Counted from the first letter of the stretch, positions 1,248-46,102 are shown. The stretch is 64,000 nucleotides of DNA from an uncultured Gammaproteobacteria bacterium (GCA_964612215.1 CAZTEW010000001.1:12432-76431), one strand, 5' to 3'. Numbers and translations: made by a program. The notes: generated from the letters alone by a model not told the origin.

Positions 1248-2774
1248 TTAGATTTCGAGAAGACTTTCATAATCACTTTCCGTGAAAAATTGGGTTTTTT
1301 GGTAAATCCTAATGACCGGGTGGTCAAAAACAGACCAGGTTTCTTCAGCCATTTCATCAGGGATTAAAGGATAAGAGCTAAGCTCTTTGATTTTAAGAAA
1401 ACCTAATTGATTAGCGAAGAGCAAATCATAAAAGCGGCTGGTCAGAGGAAACTGGTTTGGCAAGCGCTGGTGGTTGCTGAACATTCTCCGGCTTTGGACG
1501 ATAAAATAGTCAGCTTCAGCTAAGAGACCAGGCAGTTCTTGCCGGAGGCTGGCTTGCTCGTCAAGATGATAAAAATCAAAGCCGACTTTTTTCAAACTGC
1601 CGGTTAGCGGTACTTCCAGCATGTTGCCGGATTCGGTCAGAACGGTTGCTGCCGCCGGCAGATTGGCATTCAGCCAGTCAGTCGCGGTGATTCTGACATC
1701 AGGCCGGAGATAGATAGAGAAAAAGATCAAAGTCCAGAGAAAGTTAGTAAAAAGTAAAAAGTAAAAAGTAAAAAGTAAAAATTTATTTTTTATTTTTTTA
1801 TATAAATAAGCGGTGAAGATGGCGAAAAAGGGAAAGCTGGGAGCAATAAAGCGGGTCCATTTGGCAAAAAGAAAAGCATGGGGTAGAAAAAGGAGCAGAA
1901 AAGCAGCGACAACCAAACGCCAATTCGGATTTCTGATGGCCAGAAAAAAACCGATGGTTCCCAAAAGCAAAACCGCTGGTCCGAGAGCGTAAGGGAGAAT
2001 TTTCTGAAACTGGAAAAGAACAGGCAGGGTGTTAATGAACTGGCGAGTGTAAAAAACTACTGGTTGGCCGCGGCCGACACCAGTTTCATAATTTAAAGAA
2101 TGGGAGAAAGCAGAGTAATCCAGCAGGCTATAAGGGAAAGCGCAAAAGAAAACAAAACCGGCAAGGAAAAGAGGAACGATCACTTTTTCGATTAAAAGAA
2201 AAGGTTTCGTTAAAACGAAAAATAACAAAATTGGTAGCCAAAACAAAACAGTAATTTTGGTAGCCAGAGCCAGACCAAAGCTGGCTGCGGCAAGATAAAG
2301 AAATTTGAGTTTTTTTGTTTTTTGGTACTGCATACCCAAATAAAGAAATAAAAATAGCCAAAAGGTCAAGTTAGATTCTGGGGTGGCAAAATGAGCTTGC
2401 TGGATTAGGCCAGGGAGAGTGGCGCTGAGCGCGGCCGCGAGAAGCGCCTGTTTGGGAAAGAGCCGGCGGGCAATTAAATAAACAAGAATAATCGTTAAAG
2501 TGGAAAAAAGAGCGGCGTAAAAACGGCCAATAATAATAGCGGGTAGCGTGTGGCCGATGGCGGCCAGCAGCAGCTTGGTGAAATAAATGAGATAAACAGT
2601 TAATGAGCCGTAAGAGAAAAGCTCAGGGTTCATCTGGCGGGGAAAAGAGAGTCTTTCAACTGCCGCGGCAAGATGGTATTCGTCCGGATGGAAGAAGTAA
2701 CCCTGACCCCAGTCAAGCTTAAAAAACCTGAAAAAGCCGCTAATCAGAATAATCAAGAGAAGTTTAAACGACAT
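1248..2774 (-). CDS. GT-C fold membrane glycosyltransferase (GT39 PMT/ArnT-like)
   Basis: 508 aa, more than 10 predicted TM helices. N-terminal loop motif DWGQGYFFHPDE, then YGSLTVYLIYF. Tandem paralog of the upstream truncated gene. Confidence 0.6.
   Translation of the reverse strand: MSFKLLLIILISGFFRFFKLDWGQGYFFHPDEYHLAAAVERLSFPRQMNPELFSYGSLTVYLIYFTKLLLAAIGHTLPAIIIGRFYAALFSTLTIILVYLIARRLFPKQALLAAALSATLPGLIQQAHFATPESNLTFWLFLFLYLGMQYQKTKKLKFLYLAAASFGLALATKITVLFWLPILLFFVLTKPFLLIEKVIVPLFLAGFVFFCAFPYSLLDYSAFSHSLNYETGVGRGQPVVFYTRQFINTLPVLFQFQKILPYALGPAVLLLGTIGFFLAIRNPNWRLVVAAFLLLFLPHAFLFAKWTRFIAPSFPFFAIFTAYLYKKIKNKFLLFTFYFLLFTNFLWTLIFFSIYLRPDVRITATDWLNANLPAAATVLTESGNMLEVPLTGSLKKVGFDFYHLDEQASLRQELPGLLAEADYFIVQSRRMFSNHQRLPNQFPLTSRFYDLLFANQLGFLKIKELSSYPLIPDEMAEETWSVFDHPVIRIYQKTQFFTESDYESLLEI
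1747..1781. repeat. Heptanucleotide tandem repeat (gtaaaaa)x5 inside GT-C gene
   Basis: Direct read: gt dinucleotide recurs at 1747, 1754, 1761, 1768, 1775. Encodes FLLFTFYFLLFT on the minus strand. Confidence 0.85.
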
Positions 2775-3669
2775 AGATAATGAGGATAGTCATTAATCCC
2801 CAGCCCATGACGCTTAAAGAAAGAGGAATGTCACTGGTCAGGAGCTTCTCCGGCCTTTCGCCGGCCTGTTTCTCATAAATCAGCTGGGCGTAACGCATAA
2901 TGCCGAAAATGACAAAAGGAATCGTGGCGGCCATCAACCACTTTCGGCCCAGAGCCTTAGGGAAGTTAATCACTAAAAATTGAGTTAAGGGCTCGCTGAA
3001 TTCAGGCGGTTCAGTGAAAAAGGTAAAAAGAGCATAAGAGACCAAAGCGGCGTTGGCAAAAGTTGAAGTGTAAAAATCAAGCAGTTGGCGGCGGTAGGCT
3101 AACAGCGCCGGTCTGGTTTTGGCGCCTTCCAAAACCAGTTCTGATCGCCGCTTGCCGGAGGCAATAAAAAGAGCCAGAAAAATAGCGGTGAGCATAAGCC
3201 AAATGGGAACATGAAAGCCGGTCAAGGCCTCGCCGACAAAAATGCGGATGATAAAAGAACTGGCAATGATTAAGATATCAACGACGGCAAATTTTTTTAA
3301 GAAAGAAGAATAAAGAAGGTGCAGGCTGATAAAAAGAAGGCCGAGGAGAAAAACGCTGATGCCTAAAAGCAAGCTGATAATCAAGCCGCTGATCGCCAGA
3401 AAAACAGCTAGCTGAATAGCAGTCTGAGGCTTTATTTTGCCGCTCGCCAGCGGCCGGTGTTTTTTTTGAGGATGGCGTTGGTCATAAGGCAGATCGATTA
3501 AGTCATTAAAAAGATAAGAAGCAGAAGAAAGTAGGCAAAAGACGCCGAACCCGCAAAGACAGCGGAGGAAAATTTCCGGGTTAAGCAGCTGGCCGGTAAA
3601 AATAATGGCGGTAAAAACCAGCGCGTTCTTAATCCACTGACCCGGTCTCAGAGAAGTGATTATAAACAT
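2764..3669 (-). CDS. UbiA-family prenyltransferase, decaprenyl-phosphate phosphoribosyltransferase-like
   Basis: 301 aa polytopic protein. N-terminal RPGQWIKNALVF and NDLIDLPYDQRHP (NDxxDxxxD) motifs, typical of the DPPR synthase branch of UbiA. Confidence 0.6.
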   Translation of the reverse strand: MFIITSLRPGQWIKNALVFTAIIFTGQLLNPEIFLRCLCGFGVFCLLSSASYLFNDLIDLPYDQRHPQKKHRPLASGKIKPQTAIQLAVFLAISGLIISLLLGISVFLLGLLFISLHLLYSSFLKKFAVVDILIIASSFIIRIFVGEALTGFHVPIWLMLTAIFLALFIASGKRRSELVLEGAKTRPALLAYRRQLLDFYTSTFANAALVSYALFTFFTEPPEFSEPLTQFLVINFPKALGRKWLMAATIPFVIFGIMRYAQLIYEKQAGERPEKLLTSDIPLSLSVMGWGLMTILIIYVV

Positions 3670-3734
3670 TATAAAGATTATAAGAGCTTGCTCGCTTCGC
3701 TGTGCTTCCTCTTGTAATTCTCCTTACAGTCAAA

Positions 3735-4958
3735 TTATAACTCGCTTGCGACCTTTTTGCCAATTTCAATCGCATAATTAACGCCTCGATCCCAAGGATA
3801 AATTAAGGACTGGTTAGCCAGAGAGACATTTTTCAGCGGGGTTTTCATCCCTGGCATGATTTTTGAATAATTAATGGGTATGACCGGTTGAGCATAAAGA
3901 TTAGCGAACAGCGAACAGCGAACAGCGAACAGCCTGGGGTTGATTTTTTTCAAATAGGGGAGAAACTCTTTGAGAACTTCATCTTTTTTCATCTTAAAGT
4001 AGCGGTGGTTTTGCGGATAATAGCCGCCAACATAAAGAAGACGGCAGTGATGATAGTACTGCCGATTGATGAAGTTGGTGTGTTCGACTACGGCCACAAA
4101 AGGAAAACCAGGTTCGTTAATATTGAGCCAGTAAGTATTGTCAGTTAAGAACTTTTCTCTAAGAGTTAAAACTAAAACTACGGCGCCGACAAATTTTAAA
4201 GATTGGAGACGGCGACGGTAATCAACTGGCAAATGAGGGGCGATTTTTAGAAATTCCGGCGTCGGCACCGTGACGATGATAGCATCAAAACCCTTTAACT
4301 CACCGAGTTTTTTTATGGTTGTACTTGTCAAAATTTGGCCACCGCTGGCTTTGATTTCCTCAGCCAGGCGGTCAATTAAAACCTGAAAACCGCCTTTTAA
4401 GTAGCCTAATTGTGAACTTCTTTTTTTGATTCTGGCCCAAAACCAAGACATGGCGATTTCATCGGCAAAAGAGCCGAACTTGCTTTGCAGCAGCGGCTGC
4501 CAAAGGGTTTGATAGACGGCTTGGCCGTAATATTTGCGCAGCCATTTTTCCGCCGTGACTTCTTCAAAAGACAGCGCTTTGCTGGCTTTAAGCCAAGCCG
4601 TCGCTAAACCCGCGCGGATTTTTTCCGGCCAGGAAAGGTGTGGAAAAGTCATTAGCGCTAATGGCGAATCAAAGGCAGAAATCCGGTTACTTCGGAAAAT
4701 AGAAGTTTTCGGCTGGTAATAGTGAAGCTGGTTTTGAAGATTAAGTTCGCTGATTAAATTTTGGACATGATGATCAGAAGTGAAAAGGTGGTGATAGAAA
4801 CGTTCTAATGACCATTGCCAGTTTTTTTCTCGAAACCCAGCCGCCAGGCCGCCTAAATAGCCTTCTTTTTCAAAAACAGAAACAGCCTGTCCCTTTTTGG
4901 CCAATTCGTAAGCTGCGGTTAGGCCGGTAATGCCAGCGCCAATAACAGCAATCTTCAT
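3735..4958 (-). CDS. FAD/NAD(P)-binding oxidoreductase (amine-oxidase/protoporphyrinogen-oxidase/UDP-galactopyranose-mutase-like fold)
   Basis: 407 aa. N-terminal Rossmann motif MKIAVIGAGITGLTAAYELAKKGQAVSVFEKEGYLGG. HHLFTSD resembles the UGM PHIFHT signature. Exact family unresolved. Confidence 0.55.
   Translation of the reverse strand: MKIAVIGAGITGLTAAYELAKKGQAVSVFEKEGYLGGLAAGFREKNWQWSLERFYHHLFTSDHHVQNLISELNLQNQLHYYQPKTSIFRSNRISAFDSPLALMTFPHLSWPEKIRAGLATAWLKASKALSFEEVTAEKWLRKYYGQAVYQTLWQPLLQSKFGSFADEIAMSWFWARIKKRSSQLGYLKGGFQVLIDRLAEEIKASGGQILTSTTIKKLGELKGFDAIIVTVPTPEFLKIAPHLPVDYRRRLQSLKFVGAVVLVLTLREKFLTDNTYWLNINEPGFPFVAVVEHTNFINRQYYHHCRLLYVGGYYPQNHRYFKMKKDEVLKEFLPYLKKINPRLFAVRCSLFANLYAQPVIPINYSKIMPGMKTPLKNVSLANQSLIYPWDRGVNYAIEIGKKVASEL
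3903..3930. repeat. Heptanucleotide tandem repeat (agcgaac)x4 inside oxidoreductase gene
   Basis: Direct read at 3903-3930. Encodes AVRCSLFANLY on the minus strand. Confidence 0.85.
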
Positions 4959-4970
4959 AATTAATAATTA

Positions 4971-5447
4971 TCACAGAGCAAAGAGCAATCCGAGGATGAC
5001 GAGTGCGCCGCCAGCCAGAGCGGTGAGCCAGGTGGGTAGAGTGATGCCAGCTTCAGGCAGAGGAATCGGCGTCGGTGTTGGTAAGGCGTCTGGAGGAGCA
5101 GGCGGCGGCGTTGGCGTTGAAGTTGGTCCTGGGGTGGGCGTGGAAGTTGGTCCGGGCGTGCCGGTAGGCGTCGGTGTGCCGGTTGGCGTCGGTGTGCCGG
5201 TTGGCGTCGGTGTGGAGACGCCAGCGACATTAAAGCTTAAAGTGCAGGCGGCAACCGGATCCCTTTCGGCGGGTGGTAGTTGGGTGGGTGTGGCGGTCGG
5301 TTCCAGGGCCGGCGCCGGCTGGGGCGCGGTCGGAGCGACCGGCTGCTGGCGGAGCTGGTAGAGCCGCAAGGCAGTTATCACCGCAATCACCGCCAAGATG
5401 ACGGTCGCGCCTAAAATAAAAATTGTCGTCCGGTTTTTCTTTGGCAT
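4971..5447 (-). CDS. Small Pro/Thr-rich surface protein with N-terminal signal-anchor and C-terminal LPEAG-hydrophobic tail
   Basis: 158 aa. N-terminal TM. TPTPTGTPTPTG tandem repeats (tandem at the DNA level, 5100-5220). C-terminus LPEAGITLPTWLTALAGGALVILGLLFAL. Confidence 0.5.
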   Translation of the reverse strand: MPKKNRTTIFILGATVILAVIAVITALRLYQLRQQPVAPTAPQPAPALEPTATPTQLPPAERDPVAACTLSFNVAGVSTPTPTGTPTPTGTPTPTGTPGPTSTPTPGPTSTPTPPPAPPDALPTPTPIPLPEAGITLPTWLTALAGGALVILGLLFAL

Positions 5448-5451
5448 ATTT

Positions 5452-6843
5452 TTATCTCCAGCCTAGCGAGGGATTTTTTACCATCGCCTCGACCGTATAA
5501 CTACCTGAACTGGGAACTTCATACTGGACATAGAACTTGCCTGATTTTTTGCCGGTCGGTATTTGCCAGCTGCCGGCGTTAAACCGGAAGCGAGCGTCAG
5601 TAATGCCCTGAGGTTCTTCGCAACCGCCAGCGACCGCAAAATAAATTGTCTCGCCGACGCTGATCGTATTGAGATTGGTAATCGGCTGCCAATCCTCATT
5701 AAAAGCCGCCAGGCTGGTACAGCTTAAACTGTATTCTTGACCAGCTTCGCACCCCTCAACACAACCATGATCGCTGTTATGGCAGATGTCAAATCTAATG
5801 TCAGACTGCCAGGCACAATATTGAGGCGGACCATTGGCACTATTAGTATTGCCTCTGGTCCAGACTTCGTCTGGAGTGAGAGTCACTGCTTCGGAAAAAT
5901 CGCCACCGCTACAGAAGCAACTATCATTGTTTTGATGATCACACCAACGAGAAAACCAAACAGCCGTGCCGCTAATTGGCTGGTCAGTATTATTGATGAT
6001 CTTGACGCCGCCTTTATTTGCCTGACATTCTAAAGTGCCGCTGCCGACGCAAGTGCCGCCTTGACATTTGCCGGAAGCGCAATCTGAATCATAAACACAA
6101 CCAGCGTGACTGCCGCAGCTTTTACCACTAGCGCAATTGCCATTATCGACACTGCATGATTCCCAGTGAGCACAATCATTAGGGCCAGAGCAACAACCAG
6201 GTTTGCCAGGTTCTGGTTCAGGTTTACAGACGCTGCAGTTCGGATCATCGGTTTTCATGCATTGCTGGCCTTCGGCACAATCCTTGGTGCCGCTGCAGCA
6301 TTGCGTTCCCGGCGGGCTGGTGGGGCCAGGTGTTAAATCACCAGAACAGGGAGAGTTAGCTGGGTCAGGATTGACTGCTCCGGCGGAACAAGTGTACTGA
6401 TGGGTATCAGCATCACACCAAGTATCTGGCAAATCAATATAATTACAAGCTTGGTCACAGCCCCAGCGGCCGTCGGCATCGCAAGTGCTCCAGCCAGGTT
6501 CATGACCATTACATTTATGTTGGGGATTGTCAGGGTAATTACAGATATTATCGGCCATTTTGCGGACTTCCTGGCGCTGTTTGACTAGGGTCAAAGCCAC
6601 CGGCAGGGAAATGAGAATCAAAGCGATACCGGCAATTGCGGCGGCGACCCGGCCTTTTTTCTTGTTTGCCGCCGGCTTAATTTCCGGAGTTTCTTGGATG
6701 TTCCCCGGCTCTGGCTGTTTGTCAGTTGGCGGTGGCGGTGGCGGTGGCGGTGGTAGCTCAGCTGGCGGCACTGGCTGGCTGGCGGGAGGATTAATACCGG
6801 AAAGAGTTGGCGTTGCTGGCGGATTGGTCGGTTGGTCAGGCAT
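5452..6843 (-). CDS. Cys-rich ectodomain protein with polyproline N-terminal tail and single TM (type II topology)
   Basis: 463 aa. N-terminal about 60 aa Pro-rich including PPPPPPPPP. Then TM, then LVKQRQEVRKMA motif. Extracellular region has more than 50 Cys in CxxGxC-like spacing. 1-nt overlap with the upstream gene. Confidence 0.5.
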   Translation of the reverse strand: MPDQPTNPPATPTLSGINPPASQPVPPAELPPPPPPPPPTDKQPEPGNIQETPEIKPAANKKKGRVAAAIAGIALILISLPVALTLVKQRQEVRKMADNICNYPDNPQHKCNGHEPGWSTCDADGRWGCDQACNYIDLPDTWCDADTHQYTCSAGAVNPDPANSPCSGDLTPGPTSPPGTQCCSGTKDCAEGQQCMKTDDPNCSVCKPEPEPGKPGCCSGPNDCAHWESCSVDNGNCASGKSCGSHAGCVYDSDCASGKCQGGTCVGSGTLECQANKGGVKIINNTDQPISGTAVWFSRWCDHQNNDSCFCSGGDFSEAVTLTPDEVWTRGNTNSANGPPQYCAWQSDIRFDICHNSDHGCVEGCEAGQEYSLSCTSLAAFNEDWQPITNLNTISVGETIYFAVAGGCEEPQGITDARFRFNAGSWQIPTGKKSGKFYVQYEVPSSGSYTVEAMVKNPSLGWR

Positions 6844-8126
6844 TAAGGACTAAATTTAAAGTTTAAAAACAAGCCGCTAAAAATAAGGCTCAATCCCAGT
6901 ATGACAAAGAGAAGAGTGGGTGTCAAGTAGCCTGACTGAGGCACCCCGCTTTCAGTTGACGGCAAAGAAGTTCTTGGAACGCTGGTTGGCGTGGGGCTGG
7001 GGGTTGAAGTTGGCGAAACCTGGCCTGAAGGCGTGGCTGTAAAAGAAGGCAGGTCAGCCTCGCCGGCGGCAAGAATGGTAAATTCGCGGGAAACCGCGGC
7101 GCCGTCAGCGGTAGTAATCGTGATCGTGTGAACACCAGGTTCAAGATTAGCCGGCGGTACCCAGTGCCACTGGCCGTTTTCGTCAATCAAGACTTCGACT
7201 TCGAAGCTGGCTGAAGATTCCAGAATCAGGGTGACGGTTTCACCCTGAAGGCCGGTGCCCTGAAACTCAGGCCTCAAAGTATTTATCCCTTCACCTTCTT
7301 CAGGGTTAAGAATGGTTAACGGACTGATCCCGGGCCGATTGAGATTCAAAGGGTTAAGATTAAAGCCAGAGTTCCGGAATCCGGACGGCTGAGTCGGTTG
7401 AACCAGCGCCGGCCGGCGAAAATCATAAGTCTGGCCGAGAGTGATTTCTGGCACCGGCGAATCGTTTTGGCTGGTGACCAAAACCGTCGCTTCTCCCCAG
7501 CGGCCGGCCTGGACAAAAATTTCCTCGCTAGCGCTAGTACGGTCATAGTCAAAATAGCGAGTCAGGTCAGCGGTTCTGGCCATGCTTAAAGGAATTGTCC
7601 AGTGGCCGTCGGCCTGACTCAAGCCGGAAAGCGGACTGGCGCCAGCCAGGGTTAAATAAACAATCGCTTCCTGGCTAGGAGTGCCATCGGGTTGGAAAAC
7701 CTGGCCGTAGGCGGCGTCAGCCGCCGCTGCGGTCTGAAGATAAGGGCCGGTGGCGACTTCGTAAGGCCGGCCCTGCTGGTCATAGAGTTTCTCACTAGAG
7801 CCAATTTTTAAATAATATTTTGTTTCCGGCTGAAGATTTTCAATTTTTAAATAATGAAGCAAGTTAGTCTGGGTTTGAGTCTGGGTTTGGGTTAGAGAAA
7901 GAGAAGTTCCGTATTTGACAAGACCGACCGTTTCCTGATCAGTGATCCAGGAGACAGTAAAGCTGTTGGCATCAATATTAGTCACTTTAATTTGTTGAGG
8001 GATTGTTTGGGGAGCGGCGCCGAGAAAGCCAGTCCCGCCTTTTCTCAGCAAGAAAAGGCTAGCGGTCACGGCTGTCAGAATTAAAAAAAGGGCCAGGAGA
8101 GTGGGAATTGATTTTTTAGCTTTCAT
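6843..8126 (-). CDS. Surface protein with FN3-like and bacterial Ig-like domains and C-terminal hydrophobic anchor
   Basis: 427 aa. N-terminal signal-anchor. FN3-like FTVSWITDQETVGLVKYGTS..YYLKIGS. Ig-like TVTLILESS..HTITITTADGAAV. PT-rich linker. C-terminus VPQSGYLTPTLLFVILGLSLIF. Confidence 0.5.
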   Translation of the reverse strand: MKAKKSIPTLLALFLILTAVTASLFLLRKGGTGFLGAAPQTIPQQIKVTNIDANSFTVSWITDQETVGLVKYGTSLSLTQTQTQTQTNLLHYLKIENLQPETKYYLKIGSSEKLYDQQGRPYEVATGPYLQTAAAADAAYGQVFQPDGTPSQEAIVYLTLAGASPLSGLSQADGHWTIPLSMARTADLTRYFDYDRTSASEEIFVQAGRWGEATVLVTSQNDSPVPEITLGQTYDFRRPALVQPTQPSGFRNSGFNLNPLNLNRPGISPLTILNPEEGEGINTLRPEFQGTGLQGETVTLILESSASFEVEVLIDENGQWHWVPPANLEPGVHTITITTADGAAVSREFTILAAGEADLPSFTATPSGQVSPTSTPSPTPTSVPRTSLPSTESGVPQSGYLTPTLLFVILGLSLIFSGLFLNFKFSP

Positions 8127-8425
8127 TCTTTTCCAGGCTGGCCGCTAGGATTGGCACTAGAGGTTGTTTCGTTAGCTTCTGCGACCGGCCCTAATTCCTC
8201 CAGCCGGCCTAATTCTTCTTCTGAAATCCGAAGACGTTCTTTAAGCTGGTTGATTACCTCTTGATTTAATTTAGGATCCAAGGGCTGCATTTGTTGATCG
8301 AGAATTTCCGGTAGAGTATATCGAGTTAAAGCTCGGTAAACATCAAAGCCTATCCAGACCGCCACGGTCAGTAAAGTGGAAACAGCTAAGCTGATTAAAT
8401 CGCGGTTGATTTTTTTCTTTTTCAT
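8123..8425 (-). CDS. Small membrane protein (pilus-operon associated, function unknown)
   Basis: 100 aa. MKKKK plus one TM plus charged C-terminal region. 4-nt overlaps on both sides suggest translational coupling. Confidence 0.4.
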   Translation of the reverse strand: MKKKKINRDLISLAVSTLLTVAVWIGFDVYRALTRYTLPEILDQQMQPLDPKLNQEVINQLKERLRISEEELGRLEELGPVAEANETTSSANPSGQPGKE

Positions 8426-9039
8426 GGCAAAGAATAGATTTGAGCCTGAATTGTTAACATAATTGATGTTTCTTCTTCAAGGCCTGACTTTTCTTCAGCA
8501 AAGTCAAAGTTTTTTAAAATTACCAGTCTTTCCAGTTTTTCTAAATCAGTTAAGAATTTTTTTAAATCTTCATAATTGCCAGCGGCGCCAAAATCCACTG
8601 CCAGCGTCAATAGTTCGCTTTTTGGCTCAACAGGCAAGAGATCAGCCTTTTCTAGTTTAAAGCTGATGAGCTGAACGTTGTTTTTATAGGCCAAATATTC
8701 CAGTTGTTTGATGAGCTGAGAAAACTCGCTTTTTTTCGGCAAGGCGGCTTCAATATAGACCAGGTCTGGCTGGACGCGCAAATATTCCTTTTGCGCCAAG
8801 GAAAGAGAATTGATTTTTTGTTCCAGCTTTTGGCTAGCCTCACCCTTATCACGGATTTCCTTGATTAAGCCGCTGATGGTTCTTAAACTCGGCCTAATCG
8901 CGAAAAAGCCGCAAAAAGCGACCGTTAAAAGCGAAACTGCTAAAAAAGTAACATCTTTCACCGCCTGATCTTGATAAAGACCACCCAGGCGATGATAGTA
9001 GCGACGGTATTGGTGGTAAGGCTGTTGGCGATTATTCAT
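8422..9039 (-). CDS. pilO: Type IV pilus assembly protein PilO-like
   Basis: 205 aa. Single N-proximal TM, coiled-coil segment, C-terminal ferredoxin-like region typical of PilO. Immediately follows the PilN-like gene. Confidence 0.5.
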   Translation of the reverse strand: MNNRQQPYHQYRRYYHRLGGLYQDQAVKDVTFLAVSLLTVAFCGFFAIRPSLRTISGLIKEIRDKGEASQKLEQKINSLSLAQKEYLRVQPDLVYIEAALPKKSEFSQLIKQLEYLAYKNNVQLISFKLEKADLLPVEPKSELLTLAVDFGAAGNYEDLKKFLTDLEKLERLVILKNFDFAEEKSGLEEETSIMLTIQAQIYSLP

Positions 9040-9607
9040 TTTTGATTCTGTTTAAAGAATCAGCGGCCGGTGTTGCTTCACTGGCGCTGACAGTAAACTC
9101 AATCAGGCCTGATTCTTTTTTCCTGACTTCTTCAAGATTAATTTTTTCTAACTGGAGCTTTTCTTTTAAGCCGGTGAGAAAATGATGAAAGCCGGCATCA
9201 GAAATGGAGGTGGCGCTAATTTGCCAGCCGCCTTTTTCGATTTTTAACTCTGTTAAAACAACGTCCAGGGGAATGATGACCGACAATTGCTGCAGCCGGC
9301 TGGCGGCCGGAATTTGTTCACCGCTTAAGCGGTTGATTTCATTAAGTCTTTGCTGCAGCCGGCGGAAATTGGTTTCTAAGTCTTCTAACGAGCCGACAAT
9401 CGCCTGTTGTTGTTTAATGGTTTCGCTCAAGTCCATCAATTCCCGGTCAAGCTTAAACCGGGAAAGAAAACAAACAATCACGATGAGTTCAGTAGTGATG
9501 ACAATCCAGCGGCCGACAGTCAGGGTCCAATGAAGCAACTTGCCTAAGGAAGTTTGTTCAAAAGTTTTGATAAAAAGCAAATTGATTTCTTTTTTCCAGA
9601 CAGCCAT
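9032..9607 (-). CDS. pilN: Type IV pilus assembly protein PilN-like
   Basis: 191 aa. N-terminus KKEINLLF matches the PilN INLLP motif. One TM, then periplasmic coiled coil. Confidence 0.55.
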   Translation of the reverse strand: MAVWKKEINLLFIKTFEQTSLGKLLHWTLTVGRWIVITTELIVIVCFLSRFKLDRELMDLSETIKQQQAIVGSLEDLETNFRRLQQRLNEINRLSGEQIPAASRLQQLSVIIPLDVVLTELKIEKGGWQISATSISDAGFHHFLTGLKEKLQLEKINLEEVRKKESGLIEFTVSASEATPAADSLNRIKNE

Positions 9608-9640
9608 ATATTTTCAGTATAGAAATTTTCCCGGGATTTG

Positions 9641-9868
9641 TCAAAGGGCAGCAAGTTGGCTTTTGCAGCGAGCCGCTTTGTTCTGATGGAGGATGCCTTT
9701 TTTCACCGCCCGGTCAAGCACCGCATAAGCCAATGCCAGGCTTTTTTTGTTTTTCTTAGCCTTAGCTTTTTTAATCGCCATTTTGACCTTGTTTTTAATC
9801 CGGAGATTAACTAATCTACGGCGCTGGTCTTTCCGCAGGGCTTTTTTCGCTGATTGAGTGATAGGCAT
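9641..9868 (-). CDS. rpsT: 30S ribosomal protein bS20
   Basis: 75 aa. MPITQSAKKALRKDQRRRLVNLRIKNKVK..KKGILHQNKAARCKSQLA is canonical S20. Confidence 0.85.
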   Translation of the reverse strand: MPITQSAKKALRKDQRRRLVNLRIKNKVKMAIKKAKAKKNKKSLALAYAVLDRAVKKGILHQNKAARCKSQLAAL

Positions 9869-9928: not shown

Positions 9929-11647
9929 ATGGTTGCTAATTTCTTAGGTCGGCGGCAGACGAACATTTCTTCCGCTGCCGCCATTATCAGTTTAATGATT
10001 GCTTTTTCCCGAATTCTGGGCTTGATGCGCAATCGGGTTTTGGCCCATTTTTTCTCTTCCACCGAGCTGTCTCTTTATTTTGCCGCCTTTCGTTTGCCAG
10101 GGGCTGTTTTCGACATTTTAGTTTTCGGCGTCATTTCCGCCGCTTTTATTCCTACCTTTACTGCCTATCTGGCTAAAGATGAAGAAAAACAGGCCTGGCA
10201 AATTGCCAATGGAGTTTTAATTCTGGCGTTGCTGGTATTTTTAGTCCTCTCCGGCTTGATTTTTTTATTGGCGGCGCCTCTTTACCGCCGGATTATTCCT
10301 GGTTTTAGCCAGGAGCAAATTGACCAAGTGGTTTTCCTGGCCAGAATCTTAATTGTTTCCCAGGGATTTTTCCTGCTGTCTTACTTTTTGACCGGCATTT
10401 TGGAATCATGGCAGCGCTTTTTAGTGCCGGCGATTGCGCCGATTTTCTATAACCTGGGAATTATCGGCGGCACGGCTTTTTTGGCGCCGAAATTGGGATT
10501 AACAGGGTCGGTTTTAGGCGTCGTGGCCGGCGCTTTTTTTCATTTTATTATTCAATTGCCTCTAGCTTTCAACCTTGGCTTCCGGCCGCGGTTAATTTTT
10601 AATTTTTCCCAGCCCGGTTTGAAAAAGGTGGGTCGATTAGCCTGGCCGCGGATAATTGAGCTTTCTCTTTTAGAGCTGGCGAAAACCATTGAGCTTTTTT
10701 TTGCTTCTCTAGTTTCAGTCGGCGCCTATACTTGGTTGACTTTTGCCAATTCGCTGCAGCTCTTGCCGGTGGATCTTTTCGGCACCAGCTTGGCCAAAGC
10801 CACCCTACCGACCTTTTCTTCTTTAGCGGCCCGCGAGGAAAATGACCAGTTTAAAAAAGTTTTTCTTTCATCCTGGCAGCAAATTCTCTTTTTAACTTTG
10901 CCGGCGTCGGTTTTTCTGGTGGTTTTGCGGGTGCCGATCGTCCGGCTGGTTTTTGGTGCCGCCCGCTTTACCTGGGAATCAACTTTGGAGACCGGGTACA
11001 CTCTTTCGGTTTTTTGCCTGGCGATTTTTTCTCAGGCTTTAGTTTTACTGCTTAACCGCGCCTTTTATGCTTTTCAAGAAACAAAAACAGCCGTGAAAGT
11101 TTCGGTTTTTTCTACTTTAATCAATATTATTCTCAGCGGACTCTTGATCTTAATTTTAAAATTTCCCCTTTGGGGGCTGGCTTTGTCTTTTACCCTGGCT
11201 TCTTTATTGCAGTTTTTAATTCTTTTTCGGCTGCTGGCAAACAAACTGGGCGGCTTTAGCAAAGAAGAAACCCTAACTCCTTTTTTGAAGACCGCCTTAG
11301 CAGCTGTTGTTGCCGGCGGTCTGATGTTTTTTCTTTTGAAAATTTTTGACCGGTCGGTTTGGGATAAACGGCTGTCTTTTTTAAATTTTTTCGGCTTGAG
11401 ACTTTCCACCAGCCTGGAGAAATTCGTTCTCGATACCCGCTACACGACTAATCTCATATTATTAACGGCTTTAGTGGCCCTAGCAGGCGCCGGGGCTTAT
11501 TTAGGCTTAGCTTGGGTTTTGAAAATCAAGGCCTTAATGGTCTTTTTAAAAACCGATTACCGGCTGGCCGGAAGAAATTTCTTTAAAGAGCCAGACCGAG
11601 AAATAATAACAGCAACCCCGAAAGAAGGCTCAGAACCGTTGGTGTGA
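9929..11647 (+). CDS. murJ: Lipid II flippase MurJ (MviN)
   Basis: 572 aa, 14 TM helices. N-terminus SRILGLMRNRVLAHFFSSTELSLYFAAFRLPGAVFDI matches the MurJ signature. Confidence 0.85.
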   Translation: MVANFLGRRQTNISSAAAIISLMIAFSRILGLMRNRVLAHFFSSTELSLYFAAFRLPGAVFDILVFGVISAAFIPTFTAYLAKDEEKQAWQIANGVLILALLVFLVLSGLIFLLAAPLYRRIIPGFSQEQIDQVVFLARILIVSQGFFLLSYFLTGILESWQRFLVPAIAPIFYNLGIIGGTAFLAPKLGLTGSVLGVVAGAFFHFIIQLPLAFNLGFRPRLIFNFSQPGLKKVGRLAWPRIIELSLLELAKTIELFFASLVSVGAYTWLTFANSLQLLPVDLFGTSLAKATLPTFSSLAAREENDQFKKVFLSSWQQILFLTLPASVFLVVLRVPIVRLVFGAARFTWESTLETGYTLSVFCLAIFSQALVLLLNRAFYAFQETKTAVKVSVFSTLINIILSGLLILILKFPLWGLALSFTLASLLQFLILFRLLANKLGGFSKEETLTPFLKTALAAVVAGGLMFFLLKIFDRSVWDKRLSFLNFFGLRLSTSLEKFVLDTRYTTNLILLTALVALAGAGAYLGLAWVLKIKALMVFLKTDYRLAGRNFFKEPDREIITATPKEGSEPLV

Positions 11648-12686
11648 GAAAGCCGGTTGCCGGCAAGTCTTCAGCGTCGGCCACCGTGAAAGAGACCGAG
11701 TCAGTGGTGGTTTGGCCGCTGCTGTCAGTGGCAGTGACTGTGGCCGTATGGCTGCCGGTTTCCAATTCGCTGGGCGGCGTCCAAGACCAGTTGCCGGCCG
11801 CATCAGCATAGACCATGCCGGTGATCGGCGTTGATTGCACGGTGATGGTGATTTTCGCTCCGGGAGCCGCGGTGCCAGATAAAGTTGGCGGATTACTGCT
11901 GCTGGAAATACTGCTTAAGCTGACCGGATTACTGGAGGTTCCGCCACCAGAAGCGGTAGTCGGTGTTGCCGTCGGCGAGGCGCGAGTTGGCGTCGGCGTG
12001 TTAGTGGGTTCGCCAGCTGATTGAGTGGGTGTGGGAGTATTCGTTACTCCGGCTGATTCTGTCGGCGTGGCCGTGGCTTCTGGCGGTATGGTTGTTGGTG
12101 TCGCCGTGGCTGTTGCCCCACCGCCAATCGTGTAAGAGCCATTGCTCGTCGGCGTCAAAAGAATATCGACATTGTCAATCTTGCTTTGAATTTTGCTTTG
12201 TTGAGGATCGAAACTTAAAACCACCGGATTAACCGCCGGCACTTCATTAGCCACGAGATTAAAAGAAGCGAGTAAAGTATCGCTGGCAGCGGTAAAGCCT
12301 TCAGTGGTAATATTAGCGCAGGCGATATCAATTTCAACCTGACTGCCTGTTGGAGTAATGGTTTTCACCGGACACATCCAGTTGCCGCTCGTCAGAAAAG
12401 AAGGATTAATTTGTAGACTAGAAGCCGTTAGGTTGCCGCTCAACGGATAAGTAATCCGCACCGCAATCGAAGAAATGGGAATGCTGACTGGATTAAAATA
12501 GACGCTGACTGGAAATGATTGGCCGACTTCATAATTACCTGAAGCTGGCGAAAGAGAAACTAGGGCTGTGCCGCTTGGCGTCGAAGCTCTTTTTCTGATT
12601 TCCTGACGCTGTTTGACTAAATAAACCCCCAAAGGAATGGCGACAATGACCAAAATAATAAAGAGTAAAATGGCAATTTTTTTCAT
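11583..12686 (-). CDS. Surface protein: N-anchor, cohesin-like domain, PT linker, Ig-like domain, C-terminal LPATG-hydrophobic signal
   Basis: 367 aa. N-terminus MKKIAILLFIILVIVAIPLGVYLVKQRQEIRKRA. Cohesin-like beta-sandwich region identical to that of 13294..14712. C-terminus LPATGFLTPTVLSLLSGLLLLFLGLAL. Confidence 0.5.
   Translation of the reverse strand: MKKIAILLFIILVIVAIPLGVYLVKQRQEIRKRASTPSGTALVSLSPASGNYEVGQSFPVSVYFNPVSIPISSIAVRITYPLSGNLTASSLQINPSFLTSGNWMCPVKTITPTGSQVEIDIACANITTEGFTAASDTLLASFNLVANEVPAVNPVVLSFDPQQSKIQSKIDNVDILLTPTSNGSYTIGGGATATATPTTIPPEATATPTESAGVTNTPTPTQSAGEPTNTPTPTRASPTATPTTASGGGTSSNPVSLSSISSSSNPPTLSGTAAPGAKITITVQSTPITGMVYADAAGNWSWTPPSELETGSHTATVTATDSSGQTTTDSVSFTVADAEDLPATGFLTPTVLSLLSGLLLLFLGLAL
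12205..12605. repeat. Copy A of perfect 401-bp direct repeat (partner 14219..14619)
   Basis: Compared both stretches base by eye and they are identical. Boundaries set by flanking mismatches. Encodes the shared RKRASTPSGT..VLSFDP cohesin-like domain. Confidence 0.8.
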
Positions 12687-12689
12687 CGT

Positions 12690-13307
12690 TTATTTAATTT
12701 GGTAAATGCCTGTTAGAAAATTAAGCTTTACTTTTTGGTTATCTTTAGTTGTTAATTTAGTCTGTTGAGGATCAAAAGCTAGGATTAAATTTTCAATCGC
12801 CGCTTCGGCCGTCAATTCAATTGTGCCTAAAATATCTTCTCCGTTTAGTTGAAAACCAGTCAGGGTTGGGTTAACAGCCGCTAATTCAAGATTAACAGTT
12901 TTATTTTGCCAGTCAACCCAAACTTTATTGATTGGGTAGATCCAGCCCTGTTGCTGCCAGTCAGAATTAGGTTGAATTTTAGTGCTTTGGGGTTGTAAAG
13001 GCGGGATTTTATCAAAAGGATAACTTAAGTGAAGAGCAATGCCAGAAAGAGAAAGATTTTGACCGGTTAGTCTGATCTCCAAAGATAGGTTTTGATCAAC
13101 CACTAATTGACTGTTTTGAGGAACAAGAAAGAGACTGGCTTGAGTTTCTGTCGTCATTTGCTTTTCCGGCAAACTAGATTCCGTGACTGCTTGGTGGAAA
13201 GCTGGATTTTTTGTTCTCTGCAGATTGAGAAAAACTAGCCAGCTGCCTATCACTAATAAAATGATTAGACCAAATAAAAACAACTTTTTCATTTTATTGA
13301 TCTCCAA
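12690..13307 (-). CDS. Membrane-anchored single-domain protein (cohesin-like)
   Basis: 205 aa. N-terminal TM then LNLQRTKNP. Beta-rich domain ending LAFDPQQTKL, similar to the FDPQQSKI region of the neighbours. Confidence 0.4.
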   Translation of the reverse strand: MEINKMKKLFLFGLIILLVIGSWLVFLNLQRTKNPAFHQAVTESSLPEKQMTTETQASLFLVPQNSQLVVDQNLSLEIRLTGQNLSLSGIALHLSYPFDKIPPLQPQSTKIQPNSDWQQQGWIYPINKVWVDWQNKTVNLELAAVNPTLTGFQLNGEDILGTIELTAEAAIENLILAFDPQQTKLTTKDNQKVKLNFLTGIYQIK

Positions 13308-14712
13308 GTACAGTCAAGGCAGTATAGTTTAATAAAACAGCAGAGATATCATCAATTTCGATGAAACTATTAGCATTGACATCAAATTGCTGATTACTAG
13401 CGCTAACCGGCACTGATAGAGCCGTGTAAACGCCAATAACGGCGCCTACGTCATCAATGTCAAGCTGATTATCATTATTAAAGTCGCCGCTCTTAACTTC
13501 AATTGAATTCCAAGAAGCAGAGGCCTGATTATTGCTGGCTGTGAGAGTGATGTTGCCAAGTTTTTTTTGTAAATGACCGTTATCTTTAACAAGAACTTCA
13601 ACATTAACGCCACCAGCAGGGAAAGAGAGATTGGCCAGAGAAATAGGATTAACAGGTGCAAAAGAACTATGAGCGCCGCTTTGACAAATAACACTGGGAT
13701 AAACTTGACCAGACGGTCCTTTAAGAGTTACCCGGATAGATTTAGAAATTCCTTGTTGATTGATTCCTTGCATTCTGAAACCAAAAGAGAGCGTGGGAGC
13801 GTTAGTCGTGGCTTCAGCAATATTTGACAAATTAGAAATGTTGCCCGCAGTATCAATAGATTTAATGGCAAAATAGTATTTTGTTCCGGGATTAAGTCCA
13901 GAAACAGTAAATGTTTCAGCTTTTCCAGGGTTGCCTGGGATTGGTAATCCACTCACTGGTGTAGCGCTAGACCAATTAGTGTTAGTAATCACTGAAGTAG
14001 AATAGCGCAGGTCGTAAAGGTTGGCTTTTCCAGCTGGTCCTGCGTCAGCGGGAGCGGTCCAAGACAAACTTAAGGAGTTAAAGGAGACGTTAGTTATATT
14101 CAGATTAGTGATGGCGGCTGGCGGTGTCAAGTCTAGGTTAATTGTATATGAAGCAGCGGCTGGCGGTGTTAAGAGAATGTCTTGATTTTGAGCTTTGCTC
14201 ATGATTTTACTGGCGGCTGGATCAAAACTTAAAACCACCGGATTAACCGCCGGCACTTCATTAGCCACGAGATTAAAAGAAGCGAGTAAAGTATCGCTGG
14301 CAGCGGTAAAGCCTTCAGTGGTAATATTAGCGCAGGCGATATCAATTTCAACCTGACTGCCTGTTGGAGTAATGGTTTTCACCGGACACATCCAGTTGCC
14401 GCTCGTCAGAAAAGAAGGATTAATTTGTAGACTAGAAGCCGTTAGGTTGCCGCTCAACGGATAAGTAATCCGCACCGCAATCGAAGAAATGGGAATGCTG
14501 ACTGGATTAAAATAGACGCTGACTGGAAATGATTGGCCGACTTCATAATTACCTGAAGCTGGCGAAAGAGAAACTAGGGCTGTGCCGCTTGGCGTCGAAG
14601 CTCTTTTTCTGATTTCCTGCTTTTCTTGAGTAAGTTGAGAAGCAACAACCAAACCAATGATTAAAATTAAAAGAAAGAAAAAACCCAAAAGATATTTTTT
14701 CATTTTATTCAT
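13294..14712 (-). CDS. Surface protein: N-anchor, cohesin-like domain, FN3 domain, C-terminal type I dockerin
   Basis: 472 aa. N-terminus LTQEKQEIRKRASTPSG. FN3 LSLSWTAPAD..YYFAIKSIDTAGN. Dockerin repeats GDFNNDNQLDIDDVGAVIGVY and QFDVNANSFIEIDDISAVLLNY with Ca-binding D/N at positions 1, 3, 5, 9, 12. Confidence 0.55.
   Translation of the reverse strand: MNKMKKYLLGFFFLLILIIGLVVASQLTQEKQEIRKRASTPSGTALVSLSPASGNYEVGQSFPVSVYFNPVSIPISSIAVRITYPLSGNLTASSLQINPSFLTSGNWMCPVKTITPTGSQVEIDIACANITTEGFTAASDTLLASFNLVANEVPAVNPVVLSFDPAASKIMSKAQNQDILLTPPAAASYTINLDLTPPAAITNLNITNVSFNSLSLSWTAPADAGPAGKANLYDLRYSTSVITNTNWSSATPVSGLPIPGNPGKAETFTVSGLNPGTKYYFAIKSIDTAGNISNLSNIAEATTNAPTLSFGFRMQGINQQGISKSIRVTLKGPSGQVYPSVICQSGAHSSFAPVNPISLANLSFPAGGVNVEVLVKDNGHLQKKLGNITLTASNNQASASWNSIEVKSGDFNNDNQLDIDDVGAVIGVYTALSVPVSASNQQFDVNANSFIEIDDISAVLLNYTALTVLGDQ
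14219..14619. repeat. Copy B of perfect 401-bp direct repeat
   Basis: Identical to 12205..12605, offset 2014 bp. Confidence 0.8.
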
Positions 14713-15982
14713 CGCCAGGTATCACTAAAGCAGTATAATTTAATAAAATGCCAGAAACATCAGTGATATCAATCATATTATCACCATTAATATCAAATTG
14801 TCGAGTGCTGCCGCTCACCGGGACCGATAGAGCGGTGTAAACGCCAATGATGGCGCCAACATCGTCAATTGCAAGCTCGTTGTTGTTATTAAAATCACCG
14901 GCTTTGAGGATTTGTTCGGGCGCGTTGAGGAGAGCGGCTTGGCCGGCGGCGAGCTCGACTTGGCCGAGATTTTTTTGCAAATGAGCCCAGCCTTTGACGA
15001 AAACAGTATAAGCGCCGGGGTCAAGGTTATGGAGAGTGCCGACATAGACGCCGCTGCCGTCGTGACCGAACTCAAAATTATCAAAAATCTGATCGTTGCC
15101 ACTATTTGGTCGAAGAGTGACTTTAGCTGTTTTTACTCCTTTATCGCCATCAATGCCCTGAAATTTGATTTTAATCGTTAAATTGCCTTTTTGCGGTTCC
15201 TGGGTAGGCGTTGGGCTGGGAATTGGCGTGTTGGTCGGTGTCGGCGTGTTGGTCGGTACTGGCGTGGCGGTTGGGTTAGGCGTTGCTGTCGGCGTTGGTG
15301 TCGTTGTGGCGGTAGGCGTAGGTGTGTTCGTTGGTTCGCCGGCCGGAACAGCCTCAATGACAATCGCATCAGCGGTTCCCAAAATGTCTTCACCTGCCTG
15401 ACTAACAACATTGGTATCCGGCGTACTGCCTTGAATAACTGTTTCCTGGCAACTGGCATCAGCCGTACTGCGGAAGCAGAAACTAATCTTGCTGCTGCCT
15501 TCAGCCAGAGCTTTGAAAACAATAGTTGCTAAGGGATTGACGATGGTTTCAACAGGATCGGTAGCGCTATCAGCCATCCAATTAAAACCTAAAGCGCCAA
15601 AAGAAAGCATGCCGGTTTGATTGGCTTGAGCGATGACTGTGTCTTTATCAAAACTGCCATCTGCAAGAACCGGAGCAAAGGTTTTTAAGTTTGTGGTAAG
15701 GTTAGGCATAATATCCATTACTTGCAGTAAATTTTTATCAAAAGTTAATATGATATCAGCGGCAACGACACTTTGACCGCCAGGGTTAAGAATCAGATTA
15801 ACATCAAAATTGTTGCCAACTACTGGTTGAGTTTCGCCAGCTAAAACCAGTGCGGCGCTGTAGTTAACGGCTTTTTTTCTAATTTCTTGATGCTGCTGGA
15901 CAAGAATAGAAACAGTCACGAGAGCGGTTAAAAGCAGCAAAAAAGAAAAAATCGCCCACCAAGTTTTTCTGGTTATTTTCAT
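14705..15982 (-). CDS. Surface protein: N-anchor, cohesin-like domain, long PT linker, C-terminal type I dockerin
   Basis: 425 aa. N-terminus LVQQHQEIRKKA. PTNTPTPTATTTPTPTATP linker. Dockerin repeats GDFNNNNELAIDDVGAIIGVY and QFDINGDNMIDITDVSGILLNY. Confidence 0.55.
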   Translation of the reverse strand: MKITRKTWWAIFSFLLLLTALVTVSILVQQHQEIRKKAVNYSAALVLAGETQPVVGNNFDVNLILNPGGQSVVAADIILTFDKNLLQVMDIMPNLTTNLKTFAPVLADGSFDKDTVIAQANQTGMLSFGALGFNWMADSATDPVETIVNPLATIVFKALAEGSSKISFCFRSTADASCQETVIQGSTPDTNVVSQAGEDILGTADAIVIEAVPAGEPTNTPTPTATTTPTPTATPNPTATPVPTNTPTPTNTPIPSPTPTQEPQKGNLTIKIKFQGIDGDKGVKTAKVTLRPNSGNDQIFDNFEFGHDGSGVYVGTLHNLDPGAYTVFVKGWAHLQKNLGQVELAAGQAALLNAPEQILKAGDFNNNNELAIDDVGAIIGVYTALSVPVSGSTRQFDINGDNMIDITDVSGILLNYTALVIPGDE

Positions 15983-44827: not shown

Positions 44828-46102
44828 ATGAACCAATTTACCGCCAGTTTGTGGGGAGATGAAGCCTTTGCTGCGGTTTTAGCCCAAAAGCCATATTGGC
44901 AAATTGTTCTCAGGGCTGCCAGAGACACTTCGCCGCCTCTTTTTTATCTTTCCCTTCATACCTGGATGAAGTTTTTTGGCAGCAGTGAGCTGGCCATCAG
45001 AACCCACTCCTTTCTCTATTTCCTCTTGTTGATTTATGTGGTTTATCTTTTTGGGAAACATCTTTTCAATAAGAAAATTGGCATGATCGCGGCAATGTTA
45101 ACCTTTCTCAACCCTTTTTTATTTCAATATGGTTTTGAAGGCCGAATGTATTCCATTCTAGCCTTTTATTCTACTTTATCGATGTATTTTTTTATCACCC
45201 AAAAGAAATGGCCCTATATTTTAGCGAGCACGGCTGCCTTGTATTCTCATCATTTTGCTATTTTTATTATTTTGAGCCAATTTATTTTTCAGCTACCAAA
45301 ATTAAAGAAAAATTTCATAGAAACGATTAAACCATTTTTCTGGATAGGATTTTTCTACCTTCCTTGGCTTTATCCTCTTTATTATCAGACTTCATTAGTC
45401 ACCAGTGGTTTTTGGTTGGCTAAACCTGATTTAGAAAGCGTTTATCATCTTTTTAGAAGTTTTTTGGCGGGCGGCTTTGAGCATCAGCTTAAGAACAAGA
45501 TTTTACTGGTTAGCGGTTTATTGCTTTTAGGCCGGCGCTGGCAGAAAGAGGATTTCTTGCTTTTGGGCTGGCTGGCTTTACCAATTAGCCTGACCTTCCT
45601 TTTTTCTCAACTTAAACAATCCATTTTTTTTGACCGCTACTTGCTTTTTGTCATCCCGTCCCTAATTTTGCTTATGACATCCCGACTAAGAAAAATAGCC
45701 TATCCGTTGTTAGTCTTGTTGATTTTCTGGCTGGCAGTGACTAATTTTTCCTATTTTACCCAGCCGACAAAAAGGCCGTTTCGAGAATTGGCTCAATTTG
45801 TTCACCAAACAGCTAGGCCTGGCGACGCATTAATTAACTGGAGTGGTCAGGCTCATCATTTTTTCGAATCTAAATATTATGGTCTATCAGCACCGCTTTA
45901 TTATCCCCAAGGCGAACCGCCATTTTATATTGGGACTGCTTTAATGGAAGCAGAAGATATTATTAAAGAGTTGCCAGTCAAAGGAAGAACTGGAGTGGTT
46001 ACCAGCGACTCAACCGAGTCAGTAACCTTGCCTGGCTACCAACAAGAACAGGTTCATAATTTTGGCGGTTTGAAATTAATATGGTTTATCAAAAGATTTT
46101 GA
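44828..46102 (+). CDS. GT-C fold membrane glycosyltransferase (ArnT/PMT-like)
   Basis: 424 aa polytopic. N-terminal WGDEAF..DTSPPLFY loop typical of GT39/GT83. Confidence 0.55.
   Translation: MNQFTASLWGDEAFAAVLAQKPYWQIVLRAARDTSPPLFYLSLHTWMKFFGSSELAIRTHSFLYFLLLIYVVYLFGKHLFNKKIGMIAAMLTFLNPFLFQYGFEGRMYSILAFYSTLSMYFFITQKKWPYILASTAALYSHHFAIFIILSQFIFQLPKLKKNFIETIKPFFWIGFFYLPWLYPLYYQTSLVTSGFWLAKPDLESVYHLFRSFLAGGFEHQLKNKILLVSGLLLLGRRWQKEDFLLLGWLALPISLTFLFSQLKQSIFFDRYLLFVIPSLILLMTSRLRKIAYPLLVLLIFWLAVTNFSYFTQPTKRPFRELAQFVHQTARPGDALINWSGQAHHFFESKYYGLSAPLYYPQGEPPFYIGTALMEAEDIIKELPVKGRTGVVTSDSTESVTLPGYQQEQVHNFGGLKLIWFIKRF

Follow-up and report, generated by a model that had tools for sequence, protein, structure and literature searches.

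A conserved pilN-pilO cassette joined to two envelope protein genes and set apart from other type IV pilus genes in Microgenomates-group bacteria

Organization of the locus

We analyzed a stretch of 64,000 nucleotides (nt) of DNA, referred to as the window, which was deposited under the title of an uncultured Gammaproteobacteria bacterium (GCA_964612215.1 CAZTEW010000001.1:12432-76431). The locus in question is a run of six open reading frames (ORFs) that begins with pilN and pilO, two type IV pilus (T4P) genes, and continues with genes for envelope proteins. The first four genes are referred to as the cassette. Coordinates are positions in the window, and the cassette and the genes downstream of it are all located on the minus strand. 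The six ORFs were found at the positions where an earlier note on the same DNA had placed them, and the upstream neighbor was, as it had claimed, rpsT and not pilM. The features of the locus are:

9032-9607, minus strand: pilN (191 amino acids), with a cytoplasmic N-terminus carrying INLLF, one transmembrane (TM) segment, a coiled-coil region and a C-terminal PilN domain
8422-9039, minus strand: pilO (205 amino acids), with a Tyr/Arg-rich cytoplasmic N-terminus, one TM segment, a long helix and a ferredoxin-like C-terminal domain
8123-8425, minus strand: gene for a small bitopic (single-pass) membrane protein (100 amino acids), third gene of the conserved core
6843-8126, minus strand: gene for an envelope stalk protein with fibronectin type III (FN3) and immunoglobulin (Ig)-like domains (427 amino acids), fourth gene of the conserved core, also called the FN3 gene
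5452-6843, minus strand: gene for a Cys-rich surface protein (463 amino acids, 34 Cys), a variable accessory
4971-5447, minus strand: gene for a Pro/Thr-rich protein (158 amino acids, 40% P+T), an accessory
9616-9644, minus strand: sigma-70-like promoter match, TTGACA-17-TATACT (11/12), in the spacer between rpsT and pilN; a pattern match only
9641-9868, minus strand: rpsT, ribosomal protein S20 (PF01649, E 7.8e-15; TIGR00029, E 9.5e-17), the usual upstream neighbor, given as context
9929-11647, plus strand: murJ, lipid II flippase (PF03023, E 2.8e-79; TIGR01695, E 1.9e-83), divergent from rpsT, a conserved neighbor given as context

The tight packing that the earlier note had described was evident, although it listed four junctions and there are five. 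From pilN to the Pro/Thr-rich gene these are overlaps of 8, 4, 4, and 1 nt followed by a gap of 4 nt. The spacer between rpsT and pilN is 33 nt long and holds the best sigma-70-like match found for the region in a consensus scan. Its -35 hexamer overlaps the rpsT stop codon and its -10 hexamer ends 8 nt ahead of the pilN ATG, and no Shine-Dalgarno sequence was visible in these 8 nt. Should this promoter be active, the pilN transcript would have little or no leader, given how close the -10 hexamer is to the start codon. No convincing minus-strand terminator was found between positions 9607 and 4971.

Identity of PilN and PilO

The ORFs at 9032-9607 and 8422-9039 encode genuine members of the PilN and PilO families, respectively. 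The earlier note had called them PilN-like and PilO-like, and both passed the corresponding Pfam profiles, the former with 33.0 bits for PF05137 (gathering score 22.8) and the latter with 56.9 bits for PF04350 (gathering cut-off 22). Homologs already carry the NCBI name "type 4a pilus biogenesis protein PilO". A profile of PilN orthologs matched the Myxococcus PilN in 3jc8 (E 2.6e-8) and, weakly, the Thermus PilN in 4bhq (E 0.056), while a profile of PilO orthologs matched the PilO structures 3jc8 (E 6.8e-12), 2rjz (E 5.6e-7), and 5uvr (E 1.7e-6). As expected, a distant relationship was detected between the two profiles. Both proteins contain a single TM segment, which in PilN covers approximately residues 29-47. 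The AlphaFold2 (AF2) model of PilO, with a predicted local distance difference test score (pLDDT) of 77, consists of a long helix at residues 25-99 that includes the TM segment and a ferredoxin-like beta-alpha-beta core at residues 108-203. When this model was used in a Foldseek search the four top matches in the PDB were all PilO chains of type IVa pili (T4aP).

PilN starts with MAVWKKEINLLF, and INLLF at residues 8-12 is a variant of the INLLP peptide. In known systems the INLLP-type peptide of PilN binds PilM, as seen in the Thermus structure of PilM with PilN residues 1-15. A motif of the form I-[N/E]-[L/F]-[L/I]-P was found in 62 of 68 distinct PilN family sequences; INLLP itself was present in 17 of the 68 and IEF[I/L]P in 32. 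The retention of the motif argues for a PilM-type cytoplasmic partner, and thereby for a normal PilM-containing machine that is encoded elsewhere.

PilO carries a conserved Tyr/Arg-rich cytoplasmic N-terminus (residues 1-30, positions 8950-9039). It reads Y-x-x-Y-R-R-Y-Y in the window protein and R-Y-x-R-Y-Y in the consensus of the family alignment, where Y11 and Y14 are invariant or nearly so. To our knowledge this is not typical of canonical PilO, and the segment may be a second cytoplasmic docking site.

Conservation of the four-gene cassette

A scan of species-representative genomes seeded with PilO identified 24 loci. The genomes are titled Gottesmanbacteria, Woesebacteria, Daviesbacteria, Microgenomates, or Patescibacteria group, and approximately ten titles naming Gammaproteobacteria or Pseudomonadales were taken as mislabels. 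The gene order murJ (on the opposite strand), rpsT, pilN, pilO, small TM protein gene and FN3 gene was completely conserved in all 24 loci, across which the lowest PilO identity was 23%. Seeding with the FN3 protein gave the same gene order in three out of three database contexts. It also gave 80 metagenome loci; pilO was present in 58 of the 59 that had enough upstream sequence, and pilN in 53 of 54. Independent gene calls placed the three junctions within the cassette between -26 and +46 nt. The arrangement thus recurs in more than 100 independent loci, far beyond chance, and in no locus was the pair located next to a canonical pilM or pilQ. An outgroup search with the PilO profile gave 490 matches, the best 120 of which all belonged to one orthologous group. 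We found no description of this pilN-pilO cassette arrangement in the literature.

The surroundings of the cassette were found to vary on both sides. In one sublineage (L064, L065, L080, L087, L088, and L096) a large ORF is located upstream in place of rpsT, and the four core genes stay together. The upstream ORF of L065, which is the cluster representative, is a UvrD/PDDEXK helicase-nuclease gene that is preceded by RmuC. After the FN3 gene the loci contain Cys-rich, Big_13 or Pro/Thr-rich genes, or nothing. The cassette of Daviesbacteria-type loci and of L032 ends at the FN3 gene, with the next gene on the other strand. Since the core is conserved whereas everything after the FN3 gene is variable, the functional unit is suggested to consist of four genes and not six. 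The coupling of pilN and pilO to surface protein genes proposed in the earlier note therefore holds across Microgenomates for the small TM gene and the FN3 gene, whereas the Cys-rich and Pro/Thr-rich genes are variable.

The small membrane protein and the stalk protein

The small gene directly follows pilO in every one of the 24 genome loci and, with few exceptions, in the metagenome loci. Its product is 60-140 amino acids long across the family and is conserved in the TM segment (invariant W24, near-invariant Y30) and in the next approximately 30 residues (invariant P51), followed by a variable, acidic tail. It had no match in Pfam, NCBIfam, or PDB. The small protein was also considered as a truncated PilN or PilO paralog, which was rejected based on an hhalign probability below 4%.

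The stalk protein passed the Pfam cut-offs for Pur_ac_phosph_N (36 bits, cut-off 30) and Big_13 (33.8 bits, cut-off 27), while fn3 was just below (24 bits, cut-off 25). The family shares an N-terminal TM helix (invariant P8, near-invariant T9), an FN3 domain and a second, CarboxypepD_reg-like beta-sandwich that ends in a conserved SP-x-P-x-I-x-LG motif, followed by a variable distal part. The distal part of the window protein starts with a Big_13 Ig domain and continues through a Pro/Thr linker to VPQSG and a hydrophobic helix at the C-terminus, and that of the Daviesbacteria orthologs is a Dockerin_1 domain that scores above the Pfam cut-off. The AF2 model (pLDDT 66 overall and 75-90 for the domains) has helices at residues 7-34 and 401-424 and beta domains at residues 44-125, 138-235, and 271-351. 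Foldseek matches were limited to FN3/Ig tandems of a generic kind, among them fibronectin, contactins and SiiE, and an assignment of the stalk protein to a known pilus or type II secretion system (T2SS) component was rejected for this reason.

Neither a PilP-type lipoprotein with an HR beta-sandwich domain nor a PilQ-type secretin domain was found in the two proteins; the small protein lacked any family match and the stalk protein matched only FN3, CarboxypepD_reg, Big_13 and generic Ig tandems. The combination of a constant proximal half and an interchangeable distal anchor in the stalk protein suggests a strut. Invariant residues such as W24 and P8 are unusual for TM segments that serve merely as a signal or an anchor, which suggests that these segments make intramembrane contacts.

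Location of other pilus genes

Pfam scans of the unassigned ORFs and regular-expression screens revealed no pilM, pilB, pilC, pilT, pilD, pilP, pilQ, or prepilin gene in the 64 kb window, the other ORFs being judged as housekeeping from their translations. The earlier statement that pilM, pilP, and pilQ are absent nearby was thereby confirmed. Pfam scans of the same unassigned ORFs also gave no secretin, GspC/D/L, or com genes. Regular expressions for prepilin leaders and PilB/PilT Walker boxes gave no matches in either the window or the first 30 related loci, and no PilM_2, T2SSE, T2SSF, or pilin genes were found up to 10 kb on each side in the 10 related loci with precomputed Pfam annotation. 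Pfam and NCBIfam scans of flanking ORFs gave no strong PilB/PilT-type match among the best 25 families, a result that does not strictly exclude PilM_2 and T2SSF farther out. Direct scans of the ten flank families that recurred most gave only UvrD/PDDEXK, PMT, GH39, LepA, DUF2298, LCP, DnaJ, TIM, and RmuC.

A true prepilin gene (MKSNTKGFTLIELLVV..., with KGFTLIELLVV) was identified in the related locus L039 (3-266, minus strand), 3.3 kb from pilN. Judged from this sequence, the Microgenomates lineage possesses type IV pilins. Locus L039, the sole locus where a prepilin gene was seen, is from a strain variant of one Microgenomates population with a helix-turn-helix gene and the prepilin gene at the position where its close relatives L037, L038, and L041 have hrcA.

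The complete Microgenomates genome Ch65 has one pilus locus, for which PilA, minor pilins, PilD, PilB, PilT, PilC and PilM are listed and PilN and PilO are not mentioned (PMC7143001). A pilus locus that lists PilM but not PilN and PilO fits a split machine. The PilM, PilN and PilO families have been reported as widespread in bacteria of the candidate phyla radiation (CPR) (PMC6744442).

Comparison with known systems

The cassette resembles the T4aP PilM-N-O-P-Q alignment subcomplex of Pseudomonas aeruginosa and Myxococcus xanthus in that pilN is followed by an overlapping pilO, and in sharing the INLLP-type PilN peptide and the protein folds. It likewise has two envelope genes at the positions of pilP and pilQ, but these are unrelated to PilP and PilQ. 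Unlike the T4aP systems, it has no adjacent pilM, and its PilO has the extra Tyr/Arg-rich N-terminus. The lack of a secretin is expected of a cell without an outer membrane. The PilN and PilO folds are also homologous to those of GspL and GspM of the T2SS; however, the GspM match was below cut-off and no other T2SS genes were found.

In Thermus thermophilus the operon is pilMNOWQ, where PilW, encoded directly after pilO, is a lineage-specific partner needed by the machine and works with the secretin. This is a precedent for a lineage-specific membrane protein gene after pilO, except that PilW, unlike the cassette proteins, works with a secretin. In Clostridium and Streptococcus sanguinis pilM, pilN, and pilO are located within the core pilus locus.

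In Saccharibacteria pilM, pilN, and pilO are found together inside the pilus loci (PMC11623550). Loci 1 and 2 of Saccharibacteria TM7x contain the same alignment module without PilP and PilQ and belong to a cell with the same envelope type (PMC11623550). There the three genes accompany pilB, pilC, pilT, and pilD, whereas pilN and pilO of the cassette are detached, have rpsT and murJ as neighbors and are accompanied by two additional conserved genes. With the Saccharibacteria genes located together, the split in Microgenomates is a feature of the lineage. Annotation of Microgenomates pili that is limited to the core locus will therefore miss pilN and pilO.

Interpretation of the cassette

Apart from the cassette, pilN and pilO are ordinary, already annotated pilus genes, and the pair is a lineage-specific variant of a known machine and not a new system for adhesin display. 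We consider it probable that the cassette encodes a detached PilN-PilO alignment module of an otherwise ordinary T4P machine together with two undescribed, lineage-specific envelope partners. The pilN and pilO genes of this Microgenomates-group CPR bacterium would accordingly be encoded apart from pilM, pilB, pilC, pilT, pilD and the pilin genes, with the INLLP-type N-terminus of PilN serving as the docking site for PilM in the cytoplasm. In the envelope, PilN and PilO would have the small protein and the stalk protein as partners. One end of the stalk protein would be located in the membrane next to PilN and PilO, and the other would be fixed in or on the wall by the LPXTG-like signal and the hydrophobic tail, or by the dockerin in Daviesbacteria. 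The stalk would in this way connect the platform in the membrane with the wall or surface layer, a task that falls to PilP and PilQ, or PilW in Thermus, where an outer membrane exists. The proteins rich in Cys or in Pro/Thr, like the glycosylation genes that follow them, would belong to an ordinary, Sec-exported envelope neighborhood and not be cargo of a pilus platform.

A bolder version can only be put forward tentatively. It holds that two T4P subunits of Microgenomates have gone unrecognized, the small TM protein and the Ig-like protein with its three domains and two anchors, and that they make up a membrane-to-wall (or surface-layer) strut in place of PilP and PilQ, or, more radically, that PilN and PilO have been co-opted for surface protein assembly without a pilus. 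If true, the strut would be the first candidate for a wall-spanning component of a monoderm or CPR pilus machine. T4P are thought to be central to host attachment and DNA uptake in CPR/Patescibacteria. The cassette yields two concrete candidate envelope subunits, and thereby addresses the question of how a pilus machine crosses the wall in a cell without an outer membrane.

Several observations weigh against a detached alignment module with dedicated envelope partners. The PilM-type motif is altered in the window PilN (INLLF) and in about half of the family (IEF[I/L]P). Neither the small protein nor the stalk protein resembles a known component of a pilus, and their proposed role is drawn from position and architecture only. 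Relatives were covered as loci of ±10 kb. One FN3-seeded locus, L036, is the sole exception without pilN and pilO upstream; here an ORF of more than 1379 amino acids with CarboxypepD_reg repeats (L036:1-4140, plus strand) runs into the stalk protein gene, an arrangement that could represent a rearrangement or a chimeric contig. The functionally unrelated genes hrcA-grpE-dnaK, murJ and rpsT are conserved neighbors as well. As gene order is generally frozen in this lineage, its conservation is weaker evidence of function than usual.

The last of these points is the basis for an explanation by neighborhood without function, in which ordinary pilus genes happen to lie beside unrelated small and FN3 envelope genes in small, compact genomes with frozen gene order. 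Short overlaps are common throughout the window, the stalk resembles just generic FN3/Ig tandems, and the flanks are full of other envelope genes (LCP, PMT/GT-C, GH39, and FemAB), all of which would fit such a neighborhood. We nevertheless find this unlikely, as the four genes stay together when rpsT is swapped for the UvrD-type helicase gene, the genes past FN3 vary freely while the four core genes do not, and W24 and P8 are invariant in the TM segments of the small and the stalk protein, respectively. The persistence of the cassette through these changes, together with the invariant TM residues, lifts the case above mere neighborhood, short of proving a complex.

The earlier note had proposed that the surface proteins are displayed or assembled through a pilus-like platform, which in its fullest form would be a PilN/PilO-derived platform without PilM and pilins that is dedicated to the neighboring adhesin-like proteins. 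The missing pilM, ATPase, platform, and pilin genes in ±10 kb of 10 annotated loci and in the 64 kb window speak for such a platform. So does the nearly invariant coupling of pilN and pilO to an Ig-like surface protein. The canonical INLLP is furthermore modified in many PilN family members, and the Tyr/Arg-rich N-terminus of PilO could bind a different partner. The downstream proteins, however, have standard anchors and carry no prepilin leader, the FN3 and Pro/Thr-rich proteins also have LPXTG-like ends and the Daviesbacteria FN3 orthologs dockerin ends, the Cys-rich and Pro/Thr-rich "adhesins" are not conserved with pilN and pilO, and a PilN peptide of the PilM-binding type is retained. We also know of no PilN/PilO pair that works without a pilus or T2SS core. 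The display proposal was not supported by these results, and a dedicated platform of this kind appears improbable. Still less credence can be given to an assignment of the pair to a competence (DNA-uptake) pseudopilus or a T2SS-like apparatus instead of a surface pilus. PilO weakly matches GspM (NF040576, E 1.7e-5, below cut-off), GspM, EpsL and PulM-type domains appear lower down in the PilO fold search, and CPR bacteria have been proposed to take up DNA by T4P (PMC6744442). On the other hand, the Pfam PilO and PilN models outscore the T2SS models, the best structural matches are T4aP PilO, and the Pfam scans of unassigned window ORFs gave no secretin, GspC/D/L, or com genes in the vicinity. 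The difference would moreover concern the use of the filament and not the identity of PilN and PilO.

Downstream surface proteins and glycosylation genes

In the Cys-rich protein a Pro-rich N-terminus in the cytoplasm precedes a TM segment, after which come KQRQEVRKMA and a weakly PKD-like C-terminus, and homologs were found in only some related loci. The Pro/Thr-rich protein has an N-terminal TM segment and a C-terminal LPEAG with a hydrophobic tail. Its relatives are frequent at the same position, with matches dominated by low-complexity sequence. A regular-expression screen of all window ORFs, those of the downstream proteins included, gave no class III prepilin leader (G-F/M-T-L-x-E), and the N-termini of the downstream proteins are plain hydrophobic anchors. 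LPXTG-like ends with a hydrophobic tail are present in the 427 amino acid stalk protein (VPQSG), the 158 amino acid Pro/Thr-rich protein (LPEAG) and a 367 amino acid protein encoded at 11583-12686 (LPATG), with a basic tail that is poorly developed or missing. The Pfam scans of unassigned window ORFs did not reveal a sortase. The ordinary anchors and the LPXTG-like or dockerin ends point to Sec export and conventional anchoring.

The GC content is 0.50-0.53 over positions 4000-8000 compared to approximately 0.44 elsewhere in the window. The increase coincides with Pro/Thr/Gly/Cys-rich coding sequence and is therefore probably a matter of composition and not of foreign origin.

Four ORFs on the minus strand (5452-6843, 11583-12686, 13294-14712, and 14705-15982) share an N-terminal hydrophobic segment followed by [K/Q/E]-[Q/K]-[R/H/K]-Q-E-[I/V]-R-K-[R/K/M]-A, for example VKQRQEIRKRA. 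A loose regular expression also found eight ORFs in the first 30 related loci. This N-terminus looks like a lineage-specific export or processing signal.

A perfect direct repeat of 401 bp is located at 12205-12605 and 14219-14619, 2014 bp apart. As a result, surface proteins of 367 and 472 amino acids are identical over approximately 135 amino acids in their N-terminal regions. The repeat could be a recent duplication, a gene conversion or an assembly artefact.

The product of 14705-15982 (minus strand) scored 21.9 bits for Cohesin, just below the cut-off, and D-x-N-x-D repeats were seen, by eye only, at the C-termini of the proteins encoded at 13294-14712 and 14705-15982. Among related loci, L005 has Cohesin and Dockerin Pfam matches and L032 has a Cohesin match. 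Together with the dockerin on the Daviesbacteria stalk orthologs, these cohesin/dockerin-like modules give hints of a cohesin-dockerin surface scaffold.

Downstream of the Pro/Thr-rich gene the following features were found:

3735-4958, minus strand: FAD amine-oxidase-like gene (Pfam and NCBIfam scans; NF005560, 422 bits)
2764-3669, minus strand: UbiA prenyltransferase family gene, labeled through precomputed Pfam annotation of orthologs (loci L002 and L033) linked by phmmer
1248-2774, minus strand: PMT/GT-C glycosyltransferase gene, labeled in the same way from the same two loci
3763-3734, minus strand: promoter-like match from the consensus scan, possibly serving the glycosylation genes

The FAD amine-oxidase-like gene starts 12 nt past the Pro/Thr-rich gene on the same strand, and the glycosylation genes at 1248-4958 may have their own promoter at 3763..3734. 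Many related loci likewise have the FAD oxidase gene downstream, in some cases followed by UbiA and/or PMT genes, and further PMT_2 genes are located at 44828-47532 of the window. The FAD oxidase, UbiA, and PMT genes may constitute a pathway that uses polyprenyl-phosphate sugars to glycosylate the surface proteins rich in Pro and Thr.

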